From a phage, in NCBI GenBank assembly GCA_028130375.1, contig GCA_028130375.1_3658.1: a stretch of 64,000 nucleotides of DNA. One strand, written 5' to 3'. Shown here one piece after another: positions 19,039-60,533 of this stretch (its first letter is position 1; every line of letters starts with the position of its first letter). A model generated the notes under the pieces. The model made no database searches. It was given only the letters and a program-made list of their open reading frames with translations, and was not told the DNA's origin. A program made the position numbers and the translations under genes.

Positions 19039-19302
19039 TCAGAAACCCTCTAAAAAGCTCTTGTAGAAAACAATCTCAGTATCCACACCAGTCACAATCT
19101 TGTCGTTCCTGATTTCATCGGTAAGATAGGTGTCAAAACGCAGAACCTGTGTGGTGTTGTCACACATCCACTCAGCTGTGACCATTGCGAAAATCTTAGC
19201 ATCTTCATTATCTGGTGTGAATGTTACCACCTCACCGCACTTAAACTTTTCGATAGGCTGAGTGTTAGCTTTCGGTTCTGCGATAGTGATTTTTGTGGTC
19301 AT
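19039..19302 (-). CDS. Small paralogous protein, array member 3
   Basis: 87 aa; CGEVVTF...IVFY pattern parallels the neighbouring paralogs. Confidence 0.5.
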   Translation of the reverse strand: MTTKITIAEPKANTQPIEKFKCGEVVTFTPDNEDAKIFAMVTAEWMCDNTTQVLRFDTYLTDEIRNDKIVTGVDTEIVFYKSFLEGF

Positions 19303-19565
19303 TATTCTCCTCCTTCTTTTGAATAGCTTGTCTCTCCAAGGATGGTAATTTTGGTGTCAAGCTCTGTAACTTTCATGTTTGGCGGCAGATCGTACAACTC
19401 ATTATTTTCTAAATCGAACCCCCACACACAATGTTCTCCTGTTTTGACAATCATAACTATGTTTTGAATGCCGTCTCCGTCGCAACTTACCACGGTCCCA
19501 CACGGAAAACTGTCTGCACGCTTTTTGTTCTTCACCTTAGAATTGAATACAATGCTGGTAGCCAT
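19302..19565 (-). CDS. Small paralogous protein, array member 2
   Basis: 87 aa; MATSIVF..CGTVV...ITILGE; start and stop overlap its neighbours. Confidence 0.5.
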   Translation of the reverse strand: MATSIVFNSKVKNKKRADSFPCGTVVSCDGDGIQNIVMIVKTGEHCVWGFDLENNELYDLPPNMKVTELDTKITILGETSYSKEGGE

Positions 19566-19828
19566 TATTGTTCCTCCACCATAACTTCGCCAAGAATTTC
19601 TATGCAGGCATCCATTTCTGTAACAACCAAACTGTGAGGCAGTTCTACAAACACCTTTCTGAACAGGTCAAATACCCCAACATATATGTTTGCAGGATGT
19701 GATTTTACAACAAGTGCTGTATTCACATCCCCAAGTTCATCAACAAACATCACCACAGTGCCTGGAGCTACTGAGGACAGATACTTCTTAGTTTTACGGT
19801 TTGATGCAAATTTTAACTCTGTTGCCAT
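19565..19828 (-). CDS. Small paralogous protein, array member 1
   Basis: 87 aa; MATELKF..PGTVV...IEILGE. Confidence 0.5.
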   Translation of the reverse strand: MATELKFASNRKTKKYLSSVAPGTVVMFVDELGDVNTALVVKSHPANIYVGVFDLFRKVFVELPHSLVVTEMDACIEILGEVMVEEQ

Positions 19829-19843
19829 AAATAACCTCCTCTC

Positions 19844-21325
19844 TTACTTAGCGTACTCGATTAATTCCACAGTTTTCCCAAAGCTCGGGATATAATTTTT
19901 ATTATACCCCTCAGTGAGGACCCATAGAGTATCGTACTTTTTCCACTTGTTGTCAACAACCTTTTGTTCAAAGTTATGCTCAAAGTATAGGTCGGTCAGG
20001 ACGATGACATCTTTTGCATTAGGTATGTTGGCATCCAGATACTCGAACACGCAAGCAGCTGTTGTGCCCCATGTTGAGTGGACCTCATAGTTGACCATCT
20101 CGTCTATGTTGCCGCGAGTGTATACTTTAACCTCTCCAACCTCAGTTGACCAACAGAACATTGTAACCTTAAACTCTTTATACAGATTGCACAATCCGGT
20201 GATTTCATTGAACATTTTCTTTAAAGTTCTTTGAGAGATCGAGCCAGAAACGTCTAAAGCCACCACAATATCTATAGTGTTTTCCGGATTACGACCAGGA
20301 ACAATAACGTGCTGGTTCTTGTTTATAGCCCCAACTTTTCGCATTGTGCTGGTCAAAGACCCAGATCGGCGACCAGGTTTTCTGTAGGTCAGTTCGGCCT
20401 TTCTTTTAGACAACATACGTTGCTTAATGATGTCTATATAGTTGATTACAGGCTTACCTCTGTTCTTGACAAACTCACGCACCGCCTCAGGGCAACGGCC
20501 TCCGGACGCTTGCATTGCTGCCTCCAGCATATCACCAGAGTCCTGCATGGCCTGATCTTTATCAGATTGGCTGATTACAGGTTGTGGCTGATCATACCCC
20601 ATAGCCTTTCCAAGATTATCACTGGTGCCACCGTTCCCACTCATGTGATCATCGGTTTGTCGCTTATCACTTTGAGAGTTCTCACCTTTACCGTTCTTAC
20701 TTTTACCGTTATTCTGATCTCTTTGCTTATCAAGAACTGCATAAACGTTCTCAGCAATCCATCCATGAAACTTCATGTCGCAGTAGCAGCTGGCTAAGAA
20801 GCCAAAAGGCTTACCTTTCATGAACGTAGTGCTTTTCCCCTTCGGGAAGAAAACACAAGGAGGTTTGCTAAAGTCAACCACAAGGCCTGTGTTGATAACG
20901 TGATCACAAGCAATATTGAACAGTTCCGGCTCAAAGCTTTTACCACGGACTAGGTGATCACAGATAATATGCCCCACCTCATGTGACAGAAGGAAGGCCA
21001 CCTCTTTCACAGATTTTGGGGAATAGAAAACTTCAGCCATCTCAAACTGCTCGTCAGTTAGAGAAGCCTTAAGAATAGCCTTGCGTTCATCAGCCAATCC
21101 CATAATGAACTCAGGACTGTAATAGATGCGTTTATGGTCGGTTGCCATGGTGGAGCACCATGTGTGGTTTTCTACGAACTGCAACCCTGACAGTAGTGTG
21201 CCATAAAACGGCAACTTTTCAAGGAGATACATACGTGCAGCCTGCAACATTCTCAGGGCATCATCTTTCTGCGAGGCAATGATTTCTGAACTTCTGCTAT
21301 CCATTAAAACTCCAGAAGGGGCCAT
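19844..21325 (-). CDS. VWA-domain protein with N-terminal HExxH metallopeptidase-like domain
   Basis: 493 aa; HEVGH zinc-binding motif in the N-terminal half; MIDAS-type motif DVSGSIS within DIVVALDVSGSISQ in the C-terminal half. Confidence 0.75.
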   Translation of the reverse strand: MAPSGVLMDSRSSEIIASQKDDALRMLQAARMYLLEKLPFYGTLLSGLQFVENHTWCSTMATDHKRIYYSPEFIMGLADERKAILKASLTDEQFEMAEVFYSPKSVKEVAFLLSHEVGHIICDHLVRGKSFEPELFNIACDHVINTGLVVDFSKPPCVFFPKGKSTTFMKGKPFGFLASCYCDMKFHGWIAENVYAVLDKQRDQNNGKSKNGKGENSQSDKRQTDDHMSGNGGTSDNLGKAMGYDQPQPVISQSDKDQAMQDSGDMLEAAMQASGGRCPEAVREFVKNRGKPVINYIDIIKQRMLSKRKAELTYRKPGRRSGSLTSTMRKVGAINKNQHVIVPGRNPENTIDIVVALDVSGSISQRTLKKMFNEITGLCNLYKEFKVTMFCWSTEVGEVKVYTRGNIDEMVNYEVHSTWGTTAACVFEYLDANIPNAKDVIVLTDLYFEHNFEQKVVDNKWKKYDTLWVLTEGYNKNYIPSFGKTVELIEYAK

Positions 21326-21333
21326 TGGCCCCT
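21316..21333 (-). terminator. Hairpin terminator for the 21338-22381 gene
   Basis: aggggcc-att-ggcccct palindrome with T-run on the - strand, immediately downstream of the stop at 21338. Confidence 0.45.
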
Positions 21334-21337
21334 GTCA

Positions 21338-22381
21338 TTATTTAACGTGTTTGAAAATACCTGCCAACTCGGTCATTGTCATGCGGGTGGTCTTCATAAG
21401 ATCTGTCATAGCTTTCTCCATAATTGGAGATACTACCATAAAGTTTCCTTTAGTGAAACCTTTATTCCAGTCGGTCACCAACAGGGGTTTAAGTCCAGCT
21501 CCAAGACGTTCACCAGTTAAAGCACAGCATTTGCGAATATACGAACTCTTAAATTGGCTGAACGACAGATCAACTTTCATACCTACATCGTAGAACGTTT
21601 GACAATAGAAAGTGTAAGCTTTGGCAATCTCAACATCATCAGGTAGTGCAGGAACCTCTTCTGTAAGCCCCTCTTCGACCTCCTGAGTCTCTTTTTCCTC
21701 TTCATGCACCTGTTGCGTCATTTCTTCAATCTCTTCTGTGATAGGCTCGTTTACAATGTCGGAAATGTGCTTCTTGGGTGCACGATAAGTAACTTTAGAC
21801 ATCGGTAGCATATCTTCCTCCTCTTCTTCGTCAAAGAGTGCTAGTTTATCCTCTTCCGTTCCATATTGCAAGATGAAATCTTCAAAAGTATAATCACCTT
21901 TCAATTTCTCCATACGCTCTTCGCTCAGGTGGAGCATCATCTGCTGGACAATTTTTCGATCAGTTTCGTCTTTAATCAAGACTGCAGTCTTTTTATCTAC
22001 CAGACAGTCCTTTAGAGAGTTGCATCTCAATCCCACCACACAACAGTTATCAACCGCATAAGGACCTTCATCATCTATCCGCTCCAGGGATGGGTAGAAA
22101 GGATTCCCCAGCCCGTTTTCATCTGTGTGCATGTCAAAAGGTATAAGGGTATAGTCGCATACTCCATCTCCTAAAAGTTTTTTACCAAATAGGAGGTATT
22201 CTTCCCATGACAGGTCGAACTCTATATCTCGTTTCCGTGCGTTATTCTGTTTGCGTCTATATTTTTTGAGCAAGCGCTCTAACTCTTCTGGTGTATAATA
22301 TTTTTCAAGATTCATGAGTCGTCTCTCGTGCTCTGTAAGTGAAGAAATCGTATCAATTGTCTCAACAGATGTCAACATCAA
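21338..22381 (-). CDS. Hypothetical protein with two Cys-containing modules and an acidic linker; internal start candidate
   Basis: 347 aa; module ERIDDEGPYAVDNCCVVGLRCNSLK and a second CCALTGERLG...module; Glu-rich linker; internal RBS gaggagga + ATG (MSKVTYRA) lies in a 29-bp inverted repeat. Confidence 0.55.
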   Translation of the reverse strand: MMLTSVETIDTISSLTEHERRLMNLEKYYTPEELERLLKKYRRKQNNARKRDIEFDLSWEEYLLFGKKLLGDGVCDYTLIPFDMHTDENGLGNPFYPSLERIDDEGPYAVDNCCVVGLRCNSLKDCLVDKKTAVLIKDETDRKIVQQMMLHLSEERMEKLKGDYTFEDFILQYGTEEDKLALFDEEEEEDMLPMSKVTYRAPKKHISDIVNEPITEEIEEMTQQVHEEEKETQEVEEGLTEEVPALPDDVEIAKAYTFYCQTFYDVGMKVDLSFSQFKSSYIRKCCALTGERLGAGLKPLLVTDWNKGFTKGNFMVVSPIMEKAMTDLMKTTRMTMTELAGIFKHVK

Positions 22382-22388
22382 AAACGTG

Positions 22389-22417
22389 TTGACTTTACTC
22401 TAACTCCACAATATAGT
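22389..22417 (+). promoter_or_regulatory. sigma70-like promoter TTGACT-17-TATAGT in divergent intergenic region
   Basis: TTGACT 22389-22394, 17-bp spacer, TATAGT 22412-22417, about 40 bp before the 22458 start. Confidence 0.55.
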
Positions 22418-22457
22418 GCACCCATTCGAAAGAAAACTAACATAGGAGCACTTACTT

Positions 22458-23357
22458 ATGGCAAATCTTAACAGTTTTAGTACGCGGTGGAAACAGGACA
22501 TAACAACCAATCTTTCAGCTGGGGACATCCTTTCTGCAATTTACGAGGCTTTAGATGATAAAGCTACTTCAAAAGCGGTTTGTACCAACCCATTAATTCC
22601 TATAGTGATGAAGGTTATTGAGCGTAGATTGGTATCTGGGTCTGATAAGTGGACATATTTAGATAATGAAGGACACACCTATTCCAATGGGTATGTCGAT
22701 ATAAAAGTAGAATACGCGGTATCATACCGCCGGAGCGGTTCTGTAACTTTCAACTTCTCTGGAGGTTTTCGATCTCTGGCTACCTCACCTTTTGTTTCCT
22801 CAGAGGAGAAGTATGAGCTGCCATTTCTTTGGATGATGGCTAACGCGACAGGAAAAACCCCCGTTAGCATCCGAGTAAAATACAACTACAACGGATCTAG
22901 TAAGATCTATGCCGAAAGTGTCTCAGCAAGTTTTTATTTTGTGATGGGGGATGGAATCCTCAAACATATAAAGATGTGCGATATGCATGATGTTATAAAT
23001 GAAGTGACTGATAAGAATGTTCTAGTGAAAGACCTCAACAATTTTTATACACCTGGAGACTATTACGTCAGCCGTCCACTGTGCATCTTTAATGCCGCAC
23101 ACCCTCTAGGTGAGTATTTGATCGCCAATAGCGATATTGCCAATAACCGCTTCGAGGTAGCAAGAGTTCAGAATGAGGTATTGACATCTTGCAAGAGCGG
23201 TGATAAGTTTACCGAAGAAGAGATGGGTGTTTTAGAAATGATGGGATATAAGTGTAGCCTTTGGGTAGATGAGGTGTTTAATGATTGCATCTATGGACAG
23301 GATATTTACCCATTAAAGAAGTATACTGATACAAGTTTAATTTATGCGAGGGTTTGA
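22458..23357 (+). CDS. Hypothetical protein
   Basis: 299-aa ORF opening the + strand block. Confidence 0.55.
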   Translation: MANLNSFSTRWKQDITTNLSAGDILSAIYEALDDKATSKAVCTNPLIPIVMKVIERRLVSGSDKWTYLDNEGHTYSNGYVDIKVEYAVSYRRSGSVTFNFSGGFRSLATSPFVSSEEKYELPFLWMMANATGKTPVSIRVKYNYNGSSKIYAESVSASFYFVMGDGILKHIKMCDMHDVINEVTDKNVLVKDLNNFYTPGDYYVSRPLCIFNAAHPLGEYLIANSDIANNRFEVARVQNEVLTSCKSGDKFTEEEMGVLEMMGYKCSLWVDEVFNDCIYGQDIYPLKKYTDTSLIYARV

Positions 23358-23632
23358 CTATGATGAAGGCATGTGGTAATGTATATTACGTCGGTGAACA
23401 TGTTCAGGCAGACAGTGTGTGGAAATCTATTAAGTCCACCACTGACGATGCCTTTCTGAGTGGACTATGTTTCCCCAATCCGGGAGACATCCTCCCTCAT
23501 CCTGGAGATTTTGTTGTCAACAAGATGGACGGTTATACCGTGTGCCTGATGGTTGAAAAAATCTTTTTAGACACTAGACACAATCACCGTCTTGTGTTAA
23601 AATTTCAAGAATGTAAAATGACAATTGCCTAA
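23354..23632 (+). CDS. Hypothetical protein
   Basis: 92-aa ORF, start overlaps upstream stop. Confidence 0.45.
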   Translation: MTMMKACGNVYYVGEHVQADSVWKSIKSTTDDAFLSGLCFPNPGDILPHPGDFVVNKMDGYTVCLMVEKIFLDTRHNHRLVLKFQECKMTIA

Positions 23633-23645
23633 GGAGACCTTACCG

Positions 23646-24002
23646 ATGTCTAAAGTTACTTATCGTGCAGCTATTTACTGCAATGAACACCCAATCAATA
23701 ATGATGGTCACTGCCTTTTTAAAGAAAATCAATTGGGCTGTATTGTCCTCCCTGATGAAGGGGAAGGTTATCTGATTGCATTGACAGGGTTTGAACCTGA
23801 GGCTCTGGAAGCCAATCTGGACTACCTGGTAGAAGAGGGTGCTGCAGACCTGGTTGCCAATGGCCTCTCCATAAGCCTTGACGAAGTAGAGCGCTTCATG
23901 GGCAATTACCGTGTAGTGCGTGAGTTTACTATCGAGGTGGAAACTCCCGAGTGGGGTAGCCATGAAACTAATGCCGAAGAAAAAGAAGAGGAGGTAGAAT
24001 AA
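23646..24002 (+). CDS. Hypothetical acidic protein (starts MSKVTYRA)
   Basis: Start moved to ATG 23646, preceded by aaggagacc; the first 8 codons are identical at DNA level to an internal segment of the 21338-22381 gene. Confidence 0.5.
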   Translation: MSKVTYRAAIYCNEHPINNDGHCLFKENQLGCIVLPDEGEGYLIALTGFEPEALEANLDYLVEEGAADLVANGLSISLDEVERFMGNYRVVREFTIEVETPEWGSHETNAEEKEEEVE

Positions 24003-24259
24003 TGAAAGTGCAGATCTTGACTAATGCCGAGAAGATGTTTATTGAAGATACACCTTTTGAAGCTGGTGAGCTACAGTTCGTTTATTTTGTTGACTTAGAT
24101 AAGGTGTTTCCTGCACTGAATCTAGGTTTGGATGAAGTTCCTCATAAGGTTTTGTGCCAAGTTGTTCGTGCCTTGGCGGCAGAGGGGGAGTTCCACACCC
24201 TTCAAGATGTCCAGACCTACGGGTATCTTGAACTACAACGAGAAGAAGAGGTGGACTGA
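24002..24259 (+). CDS. Hypothetical protein
   Basis: 85-aa ORF, ATGA overlap with upstream gene. Confidence 0.45.
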   Translation: MKVQILTNAEKMFIEDTPFEAGELQFVYFVDLDKVFPALNLGLDEVPHKVLCQVVRALAAEGEFHTLQDVQTYGYLELQREEEVD

Positions 24260-24261
24260 TA

Positions 24262-24642
24262 ATGGCTCAGTGGAAGACAACAGTTGACCTTCATGATCAG
24301 TGGTTAGGACGCATCACTGAAGACGGGAAGCTAGTGGAGTGGGACAATAAGCATGTTAGCGAGTTGGCAAGTATTGTGGCTGGCAAGTTACGCTCCAAGT
24401 TCCCTGAACAACTGGATCCTGATAGTTCAAAGTTCGATCCTGAGTTAGAGGATGTTGTATACTACTTCGACACCGTTGATGACTACGACGCGTGGTTTGC
24501 AGCACGGGAGCTTTACCCACAAGGCTCTGCTATGCGCCAGATGGAAGAAGATTATCCTCCGTGTGAGCAATTCAATAGTGCAATGACTTGCCTCTATGAT
24601 TGGGCAGATAAGAACCTTGTCTGGATTCGGACTGCATTTTAG
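24262..24642 (+). CDS. Hypothetical protein
   Basis: 126-aa ORF. Confidence 0.5.
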   Translation: MAQWKTTVDLHDQWLGRITEDGKLVEWDNKHVSELASIVAGKLRSKFPEQLDPDSSKFDPELEDVVYYFDTVDDYDAWFAARELYPQGSAMRQMEEDYPPCEQFNSAMTCLYDWADKNLVWIRTAF

Positions 24643-48279: not shown

Positions 48280-48589
48280 TACTTGAAAATTCCTGGCATA
48301 TCAAGTGTAAGGAGGATTTCTAAAATGGATTTCCTCCTTTTGATATTTCACCGGGTTAGATATTTTAAAATTCTTAGAAAATCAGAAAATGGATCGAAAA
48401 CTAAAATGGATTTTTCAGAGCAGGCGCGACAAACCGAATCACTCATCCTATCGTTTGCACCATATTCCAGTCCACCATTACAGATTTCCCGCACATGCTT
48501 ACATCCTTCTACTGGAACTTCCTCCACTTACCCTTGACCTTTTATGGTAATAATCTAACCACTATCTTGAGGTTGCGGTACAGCTTTCC

Positions 48590-48770
48590 GGGTACTCGAT
48601 CTGTTTTTCGTTTCAAAGATTGAATTTTCTTAAAATTTTTCTCGATAAATTTCTCAGTACTCGATCTGTTTTTCGTTTTCTGAATCGGATTTTCTGGAAA
48701 TCGTTCCGGAGCTCGACCTGAAATTTTTGGGAACGAAATCGATTTTTCGTTTTCAGAAATGGATTTTTAA
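48590..48770. repeat. AT-rich direct repeats (tactcgatctgtttttcgttt x2 plus degenerate copy)
   Basis: Exact 21-bp repeat at about 48591-48611 and 48655-48675; related cgatttttcgttttc near 48740; aaatggattt motif recurs 4 times in 48320-48760. Confidence 0.6.
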
Positions 48771-48881
48771 AATTTCTATATGGGAATATTTTATGGGATA
48801 CTGTTTTATAGGAAATTGTTACGGAGGGTAATTAGCACGCTAATTAAATTTATTAAATGCGAGGAGTTCTCATTTAGAATT

Positions 48882-50272: not shown

Positions 50273-50677
50273 ATGAATAAGAACGTACGCCGCATCATGA
50301 ACGAGTTGGCAAACGATGAAAAAATTATTGACATGCATTTGATCAACATTTGCCGCCGTTGTGTAACATATAACAACCGCGCCGCAAAAGCGCGTGAGAT
50401 GAACGCAAAAGGCACCTTAAAGCCATTCCAGGTGGTGGTAAAGGCCATTAAAGATGTAACTAATACGGCAAACCAGGTACAGGGGAACACCAACGAGAGT
50501 ACCAATATTGATCCAGCTTACATCATGAAACGGATCCGGACCTGCAAGAACAAAGAGCAAGTGTATAATGTCATAGACTGGTTGGATTCTATGGGCGATG
50601 TGGTTTACAATAGGTTTTCTGCAGCTATCGAGATCCAGCTTGACAGGTTGGACGGTAAAGTACTGAAAACTTACTAA
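50273..50677 (+). CDS. Hypothetical protein
   Basis: 134 aa; cassette TTGACA-16-TAAACT, hairpin ggcgggaatgtttcccgcc, SD, ATG. Confidence 0.5.
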   Translation: MNKNVRRIMNELANDEKIIDMHLINICRRCVTYNNRAAKAREMNAKGTLKPFQVVVKAIKDVTNTANQVQGNTNESTNIDPAYIMKRIRTCKNKEQVYNVIDWLDSMGDVVYNRFSAAIEIQLDRLDGKVLKTY

Positions 50678-50678
50678 G

Positions 50679-50725
50679 TTTATTTTTAGATGGCCTTGAC
50701 TTCAGGGCCATCAATAAAGTAAACT
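50679..50725 (+). repeat. Promoter-bearing stem-loop repeat, copy 1
   Basis: ttatttttagatggccttgacttcagggccatcaataaagtaaact; 7-bp stem gatggcc / ggccatc with TTGACT in the loop, TAAACT downstream. Confidence 0.65.
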
Positions 50726-50956: not shown

Positions 50957-51298
50957 ATGACTACTATGACCGCCGCAGAAAAAGCTATGCAGATCGCCGC
51001 GCTGAAAAAACAGATCGCAGACCTTGAGAACAAGATCGATAACTTTGAAATCGACGAGGACAAGTACGACGAAAACTATGATGAATGGTTAGACGAGATC
51101 TACGGCGAAATTATGATCGGAAACATTTCTTTTCTTCCGTCGCGTATCCTCAAGGAGCTAGATCCTATCGCTTACCGCTGCGGATTTGGCGACTACATCG
51201 ACAGCCTGGATATTGAGGACGATGAAGAATACCAGGAACTACAGACAGAGTTAGAAGAAGCAAAAGAAGAGCTTGCGGAGCTGGAAGAAAACGAGTAA
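50957..51298 (+). CDS. Hypothetical acidic protein
   Basis: 113 aa, Asp/Glu-rich C-terminus; cassette TTGACA-16-TATACT + hairpin + aaaaggagaaaacaccATG. Confidence 0.5.
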   Translation: MTTMTAAEKAMQIAALKKQIADLENKIDNFEIDEDKYDENYDEWLDEIYGEIMIGNISFLPSRILKELDPIAYRCGFGDYIDSLDIEDDEEYQELQTELEEAKEELAELEENE

Positions 51299-51300
51299 GA

Positions 51301-51346
51301 TTATTTTTAGATGGCCTTGACTTCAGGGCCATCAATAAAGTAAACT
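51301..51346 (+). repeat. Promoter-bearing stem-loop repeat, copy 2
   Basis: Identical to copy 1 over about 46 bp, directly after the 51298 stop. Confidence 0.65.
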
Positions 51347-51387: not shown

Positions 51388-51633
51388 ATGGCAGCACTAA
51401 TCACCAAATATTATGCCCCTACCAACACCAAAAGCGCCCGTATCATGGTAAAAGGCTTCGGACGTAAAAAGGTTTACACCTGGGATTATGCCTTAGACAC
51501 GGAAGACAACTACACCAACGCGATGACCGATTTTATTAATGATCTGAACACGCGGATCTTGACAAATTATAAAATTACCGATATTGCCTATATAGGGGAA
51601 GGCGGGATCTGTTTTGTCGGTATCGTCAAATAA
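51388..51633 (+). CDS. Hypothetical protein
   Basis: 81 aa with RBS gaggag. Confidence 0.5.
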   Translation: MAALITKYYAPTNTKSARIMVKGFGRKKVYTWDYALDTEDNYTNAMTDFINDLNTRILTNYKITDIAYIGEGGICFVGIVK

Positions 51634-51709
51634 GCTGTTTTTTCGGTGGTCCTGGTAGCAGGGCCATCTATAAAGATAGTTTATCAACACAATGAAAGGA
51701 GAAAGTAAC

Positions 51710-54837: not shown

Positions 54838-55038
54838 ATGAGCAACAATATCCGCGTTATTAACTTCAAAAAAGAAGAAAAAATTGCCGTGCTGATTGAC
54901 GGTCAAGAAATCTTCAAGGGCGACTATGAAGATCATCAAACGGCGATTAGTATCACTCGCGTGATTGGTTACCATAATTTTTACCCCCAAGGCGCTGAGG
55001 CAGCGGTTAAACGAATCAAAGAGATTGTAGGCCTGTAA
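54838..55038 (+). CDS. Hypothetical small protein
   Basis: 66 aa; promoter TTGCAA..GATAAT, hairpin ggggagctaatcccc, aaaggagaaacaaaATG. Confidence 0.5.
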   Translation: MSNNIRVINFKKEEKIAVLIDGQEIFKGDYEDHQTAISITRVIGYHNFYPQGAEAAVKRIKEIVGL

Positions 55039-55041
55039 AAT

Positions 55042-55085
55042 TTATTTTTAGATGGCCTTGACTCCAGGGCCATCAATAAAGTAAA
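55042..55085 (+). repeat. Promoter-bearing stem-loop repeat, copy 3
   Basis: Same element with one substitution in the loop (ttgactcc vs ttgacttc). Confidence 0.65.
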
Positions 55086-55131
55086 TTTAAACCCTGTTAA
55101 AATACCACACAGTTAACAAGGAGTGATAGAC

Positions 55132-59637: not shown

Positions 59638-60298
59638 TTTTTAACTGAATTATCAAGGGGCTTAGGCCCCTTTCTTTTTGTCTGCTCTTCCCCCCTACCA
59701 TAAACGGCCCTACCTGGCAAGTGGAATAATTGACGAGCCATCAATCCCACACACTGTACAAATATACATGTAAAATAGCTATTGCATAACCTTTCATTGT
59801 GTGGTAGCGGTGCTATTTTTTACCCGTTTTCCTTCCAAAATTGCACGTAATGCAGTTATTGCACAAAATTTAACCTGATGCACATCTTCAATATCTTGTC
59901 AACAACTAAAAATCTTTATAAGTCATACACTTACACAAACCAAAGAGCGTGTTCTACGTGAAAAATCGAGTATAACTATAGCCGCCAGATCTCAGAATTT
60001 ACGTACGCTCGCCATTCTATAGCCTGCTAAGCATTTATTCCAACCATAGAATAACGGAATAGTCAATACCTGCATAAAATAATTATTCGTGTAAACTGCA
60101 TAACATAAATCAGCTTAGGTGTCAACATTTTTCGTAAACAGTCTGAAATTATCACGGTGAGTTATCATAAACAGAGAAATCTTTAGTCGTCTAATGTTTA
60201 CTGTACGTTACTATACTAACTGAAATCATTAGATGACTAATAGAAAGATAAGAAATAATTAACAATACAATTATTTTATCTGTAACAATAAGGCAACT

Positions 60299-60530
60299 AT
60301 GCAAACGAATGGCATGGCGCGACGGAGTCGCGACATAATATAAAAGCAGTAACCATCACCCCCGTGATAGTTTGTCTGCAAACTATTAATCAGATCATAG
60401 TTGCCTTGTATTTAGTTAATCATGACATAACAAGCAAGGCAACTATAGATCTTCTAATAGTTGCCCTGCTTTTATATTATGTCATAGATTATTAACTTGC
60501 TAATAGTTATCATGCAAACGAATGGCATGG
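60299..60530. repeat. Nested inverted/direct repeat block (GGCAACTAT arms; 20-bp direct repeat atgcaaacgaatggcatggc)
   Basis: ggcaactat at about 60292 and 60437 with reverse complement atagttgcc at about 60399 and 60458; exact 20-bp direct repeat at 60299-60318 and 60511-60530. Confidence 0.6.
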
Positions 60531-60533
60531 CTT

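Follow-up and report, generated by a model that had tools for sequence, protein, structure and literature searches.

Within the genome of an rV5-like phage, the translation start of one gene is repeated, letter for letter and in the opposite orientation, inside a second gene. The locus raises the question of whether this second copy is a working internal start, the trace of a gene fusion, a regulatory or recombination element, or the remains of a copying event.

The inverted repeat and the two genes that carry it

The window, the whole 64-kb stretch of DNA that was analysed, belongs to a Vequintavirus (rV5-like) and is ~100% identical to phage Murica. As reported by a first-pass annotation, a 29-bp sequence (TACCGATGTCTAAAGTTACTTATCGTGCA) is found at 23641-23669 on the plus strand and, as an exact inverted repeat, at 21779-21807 on the minus strand. 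Exactly two copies are present in the window, none further being detected at up to three mismatches; the arms of the pair are separated by a spacer of 1,833 nt, and all other exact inverted repeats in the 64 kb are at most 18 nt long. The features of the locus are as follows.

21338..22315, minus strand: gp011 coding sequence, 325 aa, starting at ATG 22315, with the frame open to TTG 22381
21585..22088, no strand: divergent allelic cassette of ~400-500 bp, seen in genome comparisons, covering the gp011 linker and the end of the N-domain and holding the patch
21779..21807, minus strand: recipient (derived) arm in the gp011 linker, encoding (L)PMSKVTYRA, from alignments with relatives
21809..21824, minus strand: SD-like AGAGGAGGA (21816-21824) followed by 5 nt and an in-frame ATG (21811-21809); anti-SD duplex of -12 kcal/mol
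22316..22457, no strand: divergent promoter region between gp011 and gp010, which puts the arms into opposite transcription units
23641..23669, plus strand: donor arm, the gp008 translation-initiation region from -5 to +24 around ATG 23646; ancestral, across Vequintavirus
23646..24002, plus strand: gp008 coding sequence, 118 aa, a putative protein (phrog_12908), from ORF, annotation and PHROG

The plus-strand copy indeed starts the 118-aa gene at 23646 (MSKVTYRA...), with AAGGAGACC directly before it, and the minus-strand copy lies in frame inside the ORF 21338-22381, where it encodes MSKVTYRA as in gp008. A promoter scan placed promoter-like sites in the intergenic region at 22389..22417 (plus) and 22375..22347 (minus); promoters of this divergent region are annotated in rV5 and Gotham, and the arrangement is also supported by the rV5 paper. 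Since the arms lie in opposite transcription units, both divergent mRNAs contain the 29-mer in sense orientation, around an AUG.

The 347-aa ORF beginning at TTG 22381 corresponds to the 325-aa protein that databases start at ATG 22315 and annotate as "anti-sigma factor" or "HNH endonuclease", the latter being the RefSeq label. In this protein an acidic linker joins an N-terminal Srd/EndoVII-like domain to a conserved C-terminal domain. It matches phrog_3118 (1.7e-112), phrog_1400 (Srd anti-sigma factor; 3.5e-10) and phrog_4592 (6.5e-13), the similarity to the Srd profiles phrog_1400 and phrog_4592 being confined to the N-terminal region. The Srd protein of T4 is a stimulator of RNase E, formerly described as an "anti-sigma decoy". 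By profile similarity gp011 appears to be a Srd-like protein, in agreement with the rV5 paper, which considers gp11 a probable Srd homolog; it differs from T4 Srd by the additional acidic linker and conserved C-terminal domain, and by its RefSeq label. This likeness is a matter of the host gene gp011 and not of the repeat. The acidic linker is probably disordered, its pLDDT being 26-29 in a low-confidence AlphaFold2 model (8-sequence alignment, mean pLDDT 49) that was too poor for fold searches and was set aside for that purpose. A PDB profile search with gp011 returned no relatives and no solved structure, a BLASTP comparison of its N- and C-terminal halves gave no significant internal duplication, and Pfam gave no informative match for gp011, gp008, gp009 or gp010.

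Ancestral and derived alleles of gp011

The gp008 arm is the older of the two. It is identical in rV5, which has no gp011 arm, and it is conserved at 29/29 positions in at least 31 non-carrier records, with variants of one to three mismatches in L003, L004, nomine, Alma and ECP32. The gp011 patch was found in 28 of ~119 database records, in 23 of which both arms are perfect. Ancestral alleles of gp011 were aligned from rV5, I29, JeffSchatz, 10C2, Pr121LW, isim, SYGMH1 and IMG/VR contigs; at the site of the patch rV5, I29, JeffSchatz, isim, SYGMH1 and a 62-65%-identical sister clade carry the conserved motif PMQDFKNFMADRA / PAQELREFMEKRA. Because rV5 and many relatives have the gp008 arm only, and the ancestral gp011 motif is kept at 62-65% identity, the sequences identify the gp011 arm as a derived copy of the gp008 start with a lineage-restricted distribution.

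In the carriers, the 25 nt between the microhomologies ACCGATG and ATCGTGCA[GC] have given way to 13 nt of gp008, which are the nucleotides lying between the same two microhomologies in the donor. DNA alignments show that ACCGATG and ATCGTGCAGC were common to both genes before the event, and that ACCGATG (21800-21806) and ATCGTGCA (21779-21786) are already present in ancestral gp011 alleles; the new bases are thus those at 21787-21799 (TCTAAAGTTACTT) plus the T at 21807. The net change is a deletion of 12 nt, in frame (four codons fewer), by which PMQDFKNFMADRA became PMSKVTYRA, and identity to gp008 rose from 7 + 10 nt in ancestral alleles to 29/29 in the derived one. The 13 replaced bases and T21807 all equal gp008, so that every altered base within the 29-mer is templated. 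Three substitutions beside the tract (21808, 21778 and 21773) match neither gp008 nor the sampled ancestral alleles; they seem compatible with the background divergence of the cassette. Error-prone synthesis was considered as their source and found unsupported, the whole cassette being ~12% diverged from the sampled ancestral alleles. The immediate pre-event allele is absent from the sampled alleles, which counts against a copying model; scans of IMG/VR and of metagenomes yielded only 6 and 8 related loci, respectively, none with an intermediate allele.

It had been suggested that a recent recombination fused two genes at this point. The recombinational part of that suggestion holds, in that the gp011 arm is a derived gp008 copy, but no fusion took place, 25 nt having merely been overwritten by 13. 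A comparison with relatives, which the first-pass annotation had proposed as a check, found no ortholog split here: gp011 is a single protein in all full-length homologs down to 55% identity, its two-part architecture is alike in all relatives to 55-65% identity, and the short homologs are frameshifted or truncated by contig ends. The joining of formerly separate genes was rejected, as homologs are single and phrog_3118 spans both halves.

The distribution of the patch is restricted and mosaic. Outside 21585..22088, JeffSchatz, I29 and 10C2 match the window at 99-100% identity, against 84-90% inside it, and ECP32 presents the opposite pattern; from these comparisons, the cassette with the patch appears to be exchanged among vequintaviruses through homologous recombination. 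Five records show independent drift of the arms, with one mismatch each in the gp008 arm of nomine, A51.2 and PMBT16, two in that of Alma, and, in ECP32, one in the gp011 arm and two in the gp008 arm; P0001 carries a K-to-E change in the gp011 copy. None of the changes in nomine, A51.2, PMBT16, Alma, ECP32 and P0001 is compensated in the opposite arm, which argues that there is no selection for arm identity. The patch replaced a conserved peptide motif, yet it persists in many isolates.

Origin of the gp011 arm

With good though not full confidence, the inverted repeat can be regarded as the scar of a single templated ectopic copying event from the 5' end of gp008 into the gp011 linker. The template would have been the ancestral gp008 5' end and the recipient the linker 1.8 kb away in inverted orientation, the ancestral gp011 already having, at either end, a match to the gp008 start (ACCGATG and ATCGTGCA(GC)). 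A 3' end, nascent or invading, may have paired at one microhomology, been extended by 13 nt plus one flanking base with gp008 as the template, and switched back at the second microhomology, with 25 nt exchanged for 13 in frame. Either a cross-fork template switch in replication or microhomology-primed short-patch repair synthesis would serve as the route, and the data do not distinguish the two. The rewritten allele would then have been tolerated in the variable, probably disordered acidic linker and would have spread within a cassette of ~0.4-0.5 kb as co-infecting vequintaviruses underwent homologous recombination. The sequences themselves show that the gp011 arm is derived, which way the copying ran, where microhomologies bound the tract, that the distribution is limited and mosaic, and that the arms drift separately; we infer both this molecular mechanism and that the repeat as such has no function.

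Template switching that homogenises imperfect inverted-repeat arms is an established kind of event, the original proposal being that of Ripley (1982) on phage T4 rIIB (PMC7202029; PMC8604942), and template-switch mutations have been described in E. coli thyA and lacZ reporters (PMC7202029) and in yeast coding genes (PMC8604942). The present case resembles these quasipalindrome events, for which there is thus a phage precedent, in that an imperfect inverted repeat became perfect, one arm dictating all changed bases of the other, in a tract bounded by pre-existing short homologies and with several adjacent codons altered together. The derived allele raises the identity of two pre-existing imperfect arms, and the recipient changes are specified by a donor that is itself unaltered, the three substitutions just outside being untemplated. 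It differs in that the arms lie in two genes on divergent operons, with a net deletion of 12 nt, and above all in the spacer, which is 1,833 bp instead of the tens of bp suited to a hairpin or fold-back. Spacers of quasipalindrome template switches in the literature are roughly 70-100 bp or less; since the separation here is far above these classical values, a hairpin-mediated intramolecular switch is unlikely and a cross-fork or recombination-based route must be invoked. The classical intramolecular form was therefore ruled out, while intermolecular, cross-fork and repair variants stay.

Ectopic short-patch gene conversion, or synthesis-dependent strand annealing, offers a second parallel, since there too a short tract is copied one way from a non-allelic donor, the donor itself stays unaltered, and microhomology is present at both tract ends. 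However, the 7-10 bp of homology available here are far below canonical recombinase needs, and no homing endonuclease site or other break-inducing element was found. The pre-existing microhomology was also considered as a statistically remarkable feature, and this was dropped: bipartite 7+10 pairs within 5 kb number 80 in the window against ~58 in simulations, such substrates being common.

Internal initiation and other readings of the repeat

The strong RBS that had been noted before the minus-strand copy exists as the SD-like AGAGGAGGA, but it lies ~14 nt from the repeat ATG at 21802, too far for an optimal RBS at that codon. With a suitable spacing of about 5-10 nt, the better candidate for an internal start is the ATG at 21811 (Met191 of the 347-aa ORF), 5 nt from the GGAGG and older than the repeat. 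The SD-like run and this upstream ATG are also found in rV5, SYGMH1 and the sister clade L005-L008, L026 and L029. The idea that the repeat implies internal initiation falls with this, since the run, made of Glu codons, and two in-frame ATGs are present in relatives that have no repeat; on sequence grounds internal initiation is possible, being neither implied nor excluded by the repeat.

It is nevertheless conceivable, if rather unlikely, that gp011 yields a full-length protein and a C-terminal-domain isoform, and that in Murica-type phages the gp008 translation-initiation region (-5 to +24) retunes or strengthens the internal start. The SD-like run is the strongest anti-SD match of gp011, just 5' of two in-frame ATGs, whereas the annotated gp011 start has a weak SD (-3.0); the sister clade shares the run and the first ATG, the predicted local accessibility resembles that of real starts, and the start would sit in the linker between two conserved domains. 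However, the run consists of GAG/GAA codons of the acidic linker and could exist without selection. Given its distances of 14 nt to the repeat ATG and 5 nt to the older one, any start would not come from the repeat, and the same two ATGs occur in ancestral alleles that lack it. Moreover, predicted accessibility does not favour the derived allele (0.48-0.51, against 0.56-0.67 in ancestral ones), and there are no stand-alone C-domain orthologs. Compared with T7 gene 4A/4B, gp011 likewise has an in-frame ATG after an SD-like sequence at a domain boundary of a two-domain protein, but its SD is mis-spaced for the repeat ATG, a by-product of Glu codons, and both older than and independent of the repeat.

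An adaptive effect of the patch is possible. In one specific form, which we regard as unlikely, the copied patch would be non-neutral because the gp008 initiation region, placed behind the strongest SD-like sequence of gp011, creates or boosts a C-terminal-domain protein, maybe co-regulated with gp008 through the 29-nt mRNA sequence; if true, this would explain the spread of a motif-destroying allele into several genomic backgrounds by recombination. A TTGACG-16-TATGCT promoter-like match overlaps the patch as well. A promoter reading was dropped, promoter-like matches being no commoner (8) than in shuffled sequences (6.3).

A shared cis-regulatory element is a very improbable alternative. The 29-mer would act as an mRNA operator, recognised by a translational repressor, an RNA-binding protein or an sRNA, and, once recruited into gp011, would co-regulate gp008 with gp011 or its C-terminal part; in its favour, the identical sequence stands in sense around an AUG in both divergent transcripts. 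Each genome, however, contains just two copies, most of the genus has no gp011 copy, the arms drift independently, and the hairpin potential is weak (4-5 bp); Rfam gave no match to a known RNA family over 21000-24300 at E<=1.

That the repeat is a recombination substrate is more doubtful still. A 1.8-kb inversion would swap the downstream halves of the divergent operons, producing an in-frame gp011N-gp008 fusion and placing a stand-alone gp011C behind the gp008 RBS, and the shared frame of the two arms does allow an in-silico inversion to give two intact chimeric ORFs. The geometry of the locus resembles that of the Mu G and P1 C segments, where crossover takes place within coding regions, and as in Mu G, P1 C and Salmonella Hin short inverted repeats in coding sequence flank ~2 kb whose inversion would exchange C-terminal parts in frame. 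Yet the predicted junction (...AAGGAGACCTTACCGATG...CGTGCACCCAAGAAG...) does not occur in any of 117 records, colinearity holds for all 116 full-length matches with no second orientation in any genome, no invertase gene is nearby and no recombinase is annotated within +/-3 kb. The site is lineage-specific, unconserved, derived in one allele class only and decaying, and an arm of 29 bp is barely long enough for general homologous recombination; a site-specific invertible segment was accordingly rejected. Chance similarity, convergent evolution or an assembly artefact has a negligible probability and is refuted by the data: none of 100 dinucleotide-preserving shuffles contained a match to the 29-mer, the identical sequence recurs in 28 records that were sequenced independently, as well as in metagenome contigs obtained by different laboratories in different countries, and the identity extends over five untranslated gp008 nucleotides.

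The repeat therefore looks like a copying or repair scar between short matching sequences, and not like a fusion or a designed second start; it is ordinary in kind and leaves the current understanding of phage biology unchanged. It is a natural example in which ancestral allele, derived allele and donor are all sampled, and it suggests that in a lytic phage genome templated copying between microhomologies of 7-10 bp can reach across ~1.8 kb, a single step having changed four to nine codons in a conserved motif and left a perfect inverted repeat. Annotators and screens for repeats should be aware of such copies, which mimic designed regulatory repeats or gene fusions. The Murica-type and JeffSchatz-type alleles are nearly isogenic around the locus, and the pair is a ready system for asking whether an internal start, or the linker motif of gp011, matters for a putative Srd-like early protein.

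The two arms of the repeat and their genes

The phage is a Vequintavirus, an rV5-like myovirus of E. coli, and the region is 99.9-100% identical to that of phage Murica, with about 120 phage records matching it at 91% or more. Exactly two copies of the 29-mer TACCGATGTCTAAAGTTACTTATCGTGCA are present in the window, and no exact inverted repeat of these 64 kb is longer:

23641-23669, + strand: gp008 arm, positions -5 to +24 of the 118-aa gene starting at 23646 (MSKVTYRA...), behind AAGGAGACC
21779-21807, - strand: gp011 arm (the patch), in frame within ORF 21338-22381, encoding the same eight residues, MSKVTYRA

No further match was found elsewhere in the window with up to three mismatches allowed, and 100 dinucleotide-preserving shuffles gave none. 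The inverted repeat is real and non-random, and the window search and reading frames bear out the first-pass annotation, which had described an exact 29-bp inverted repeat giving MSKVTYRA in both genes. Since gp011 lies on the - strand and gp008 on the + strand, the arms belong to opposite operons and the 29-mer is in sense on both mRNAs.

The gp008 product belongs to phrog_12908 and has no assigned function. The - strand gene, numbered gp011 as in Murica, corresponds to rV5 gp11 and is annotated in databases as 325 aa from the ATG at 22315; the whole protein matches phrog_3118 (E=1.7e-112), and PHROG profiles show similarity of its N-terminal region to the Srd and endonuclease VII families, with no Pfam match and no solved relative. 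The rV5 genome paper describes gp11 as a probable Srd homolog, and T4 Srd reportedly stimulates RNase E (Qi et al. 2015, as cited in PMC4980113). AlphaFold2, run on an 8-sequence alignment, gave a poor model of gp011 (mean pLDDT 49), in which the linker holding the patch has a pLDDT of 26-29, a value consistent with disorder, though not proof of it.

Origin and spread of the gp011 arm

In a scan of related loci, rV5 and two IMG/VR contigs lack the gp011 arm but carry that of gp008. The gp011 site reads ...EEEEDMSPMQDFKNFMADRAANKHISDIV... in rV5, I29, JeffSchatz, 10C2, Pr121LW, isim and UViG_000001, ...EEWEEDMSPMQDFKNFMANRGANKH... in SYGMH1 and UViG173923, ...MTPAQELREFMEKRAEKHIKDIV... in a sister clade of 62-65% protein identity, and ...EEEEEDMLPMSKVTYRAPKKHISDIV... 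in the window and its allele class. Because the non-carrier motif is common to these relatives, including the sister clade, it is ancestral and conserved. When 81 nt around the gp011 arm were used as query, the arm was found in 28 of about 119 records, 23 of which also have a perfect gp008 arm; the latter occurs alone, 29/29, in at least 31 further records. Judged from these alignments, the gp011 arm is derived, and the many records with the gp008 arm alone, together with the ancestral gp011 motif, show that copying went from gp008 to gp011. The DNA alignments read as follows:

Ancestral gp011: ATG TC ACCGATG [CAGGATTTTAAAAATTTCATGGCTG] ATCGTGCAGCC
gp008: CC TT ACCGATG [TCTAAAGTTACTT] ATCGTGCAGCT
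Window gp011: ATG CT ACCGATG [TCTAAAGTTACTT] ATCGTGCACCC

Ancestral gp011 and gp008 already shared 15 of the 29 bases (ACCGATG and ATCGTGCA), and 25 nt of gp011 have given way to the 13 nt that separate these microhomologies in gp008, with one flanking base replaced as well, a net in-frame change of -12 nt. At sequence level, this swap bears the mark of templated copying that was both primed and resolved at microhomologies. Such templated mutations were first proposed by Ripley in phage T4 and are documented in E. coli and yeast, where imperfect inverted-repeat arms are homogenised (PMC7202029, PMC8604942). As in that class of template switch, the imperfect inverted arms of gp008 and gp011 would have been made identical from one of them; however, the spacer is 1,833 bp here against 70 bp or less in the documented T4, E. 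coli and yeast cases, which makes a hairpin intermediate unlikely. It is more plausible that a short stretch of the gp008 start region, bounded by microhomologies, was copied into the gp011 linker either when synthesis switched across a fork to the other template or by microhomology-primed repair synthesis in a recombination-proficient phage. The substrate is unremarkable, since bipartite 7+10 microhomologies abound: the window contains 80 such pairs within 5 kb, simulations about 58.

A cassette of ~500 bp (21585-22088) holds the patch and differs from the alternative allele by roughly 12-16%. To either side of this cassette JeffSchatz, I29 and 10C2 share 99-100% identity with the window, against 84-90% within it, and ECP32 does the reverse, at 98% within and 88-94% outside. 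The patch allele has clearly moved among genomic backgrounds by homologous recombination, and both the species 'murica' and the species 'APECc02' contain carriers as well as non-carriers of the gp011 arm. Three substitutions adjoining the tract (21808, 21778 and 21773) have no counterpart in gp008 or in any of the ancestral alleles sampled; given the divergence of the cassette, they are explained as ordinary differences of an unsampled parental allele.

The arms have also drifted. One mismatch (TGCCG) separates the gp008 arm of nomine, A51.2 and PMBT16 from the 29-mer, and two separate that of Alma; ECP32 differs at one base of its gp011 arm and two of its gp008 arm, and in P0001, a metagenomic protein, the gp011 copy carries K->E. 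In no case does the opposite arm show a compensating change. The repeat region has no Rfam match and only weak hairpin potential, and the repeat is, by this comparison, not maintained. We consider it likely that the repeat is a lineage-restricted scar, left by templated, microhomology-bounded copying of the gp008 start region into the gp011 linker and spread afterwards by recombination. The event would be a fresh instance of a known mutational kind and stands out chiefly because donor and recipient are 1.8 kb apart.

Internal initiation, inversion and gene fusion

The first-pass annotation saw a strong RBS before the gp011 copy and took the repeat to imply either internal initiation or a recent recombination fusing two genes. 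The strongest anti-SD match in gp011 does lie upstream of this copy (AGAGGAGGA, 21816-21824; -12 kcal/mol versus -3.0 at the annotated start), but it ends 14 nt ahead of the repeat's ATG (21802) and 5 nt ahead of another in-frame ATG (21811). The equivalent of ATG 21811 and the SD-like run of Glu codons are present in rV5, SYGMH1 and the sister clade, all of which lack the repeat; such runs arise without selection in an acidic linker written in GAG/GAA. Predicted accessibility of the start region does not favour the derived allele. From this spacing, these relatives and the accessibility, the repeat neither implies nor requires internal initiation, which is possible in gp011, most plausibly at 21811. 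It seems improbable that a C-terminal gp011 protein is translated separately, or in larger amounts, because of the imported gp008 initiation region. A sigma-70-like TTGACG-16-TATGCT is located at 21807-21834 (-), and the last base of its -10 hexamer is the first of the gp011 arm; in ancestral alleles the hexamer is TATGTC, without the final T, and the spacer of rV5-type alleles is 3 nt shorter as well. The number of promoter-like matches in the region does not exceed shuffle expectation.

Recombination between the arms would invert the 1.8-kb segment. Both genes read the repeat in the same frame, and inverting the segment in silico joins gp011N to gp008 in an intact fusion and leaves gp011C on its own behind the gp008 RBS; however, the predicted junction occurs in 0 of 117 database records, all full-length database matches are colinear, and no annotated recombinase lies within 3 kb. 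The earlier proposal that recombination fused two genes fails, as all homologs down to 55% identity are single N-domain/linker/C-domain proteins, no relative splits gp011 (the few short homologs are frameshifted or truncated), and one PHROG profile covers both gp011 halves.

Neighbouring genes, records and other repeats

Labels of gp011 (21338-22315, -) conflict among records, which call it anti-sigma factor (Srd-like), HNH endonuclease, anti-termination protein or type II restriction endonuclease; the adjoining metallopeptidase/VWA protein, gp012, is likewise 'HNH endonuclease' or 'anti-sigma factor' in some. In the rV5 record DQ832317 (L009, 180-1526, against window 19844-21325) gp012 ends early with a different C-terminus (448 vs 493 aa) and the region is annotated as two overlapping ORFs, probably through a frameshift or sequencing error in this old record. 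Sixteen 'Campylobacter phage' records (MG0656xx) list C. jejuni as host and share 92-99.6% identity with this region of an E. coli vequintavirus, which points to doubtful host labels or to mixed lysates. Downstream of the metallopeptidase/VWA gene, three successive ORFs of similar sequence (19039-19828, -; each 87 aa, 264 bp) form a tandem paralogous gene family.

A dense cluster of short repeats at 60276-60531 looks iteron- or operator-like, with AAGGCAACTAT / ATAGTTGCC in both orientations, an exact 20-nt direct repeat, ATGCAAACGAATGGCATGGC, at 60299 and 60512, and an exact 18-nt inverted repeat at 60332 / 60466. A 51-nt intergenic element in four copies, 69-100% identical (50675-50725, 51296-51346, 51631-51681 and 55037-55087), has a GGCC...GGCC hairpin with A/T-rich flanks; it is probably a terminator/promoter module that recurs between small early genes. 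At 48585-48780 a 57-nt unit is repeated three times in tandem, with diverged copies (61-100%) spaced 65 and 74 nt.
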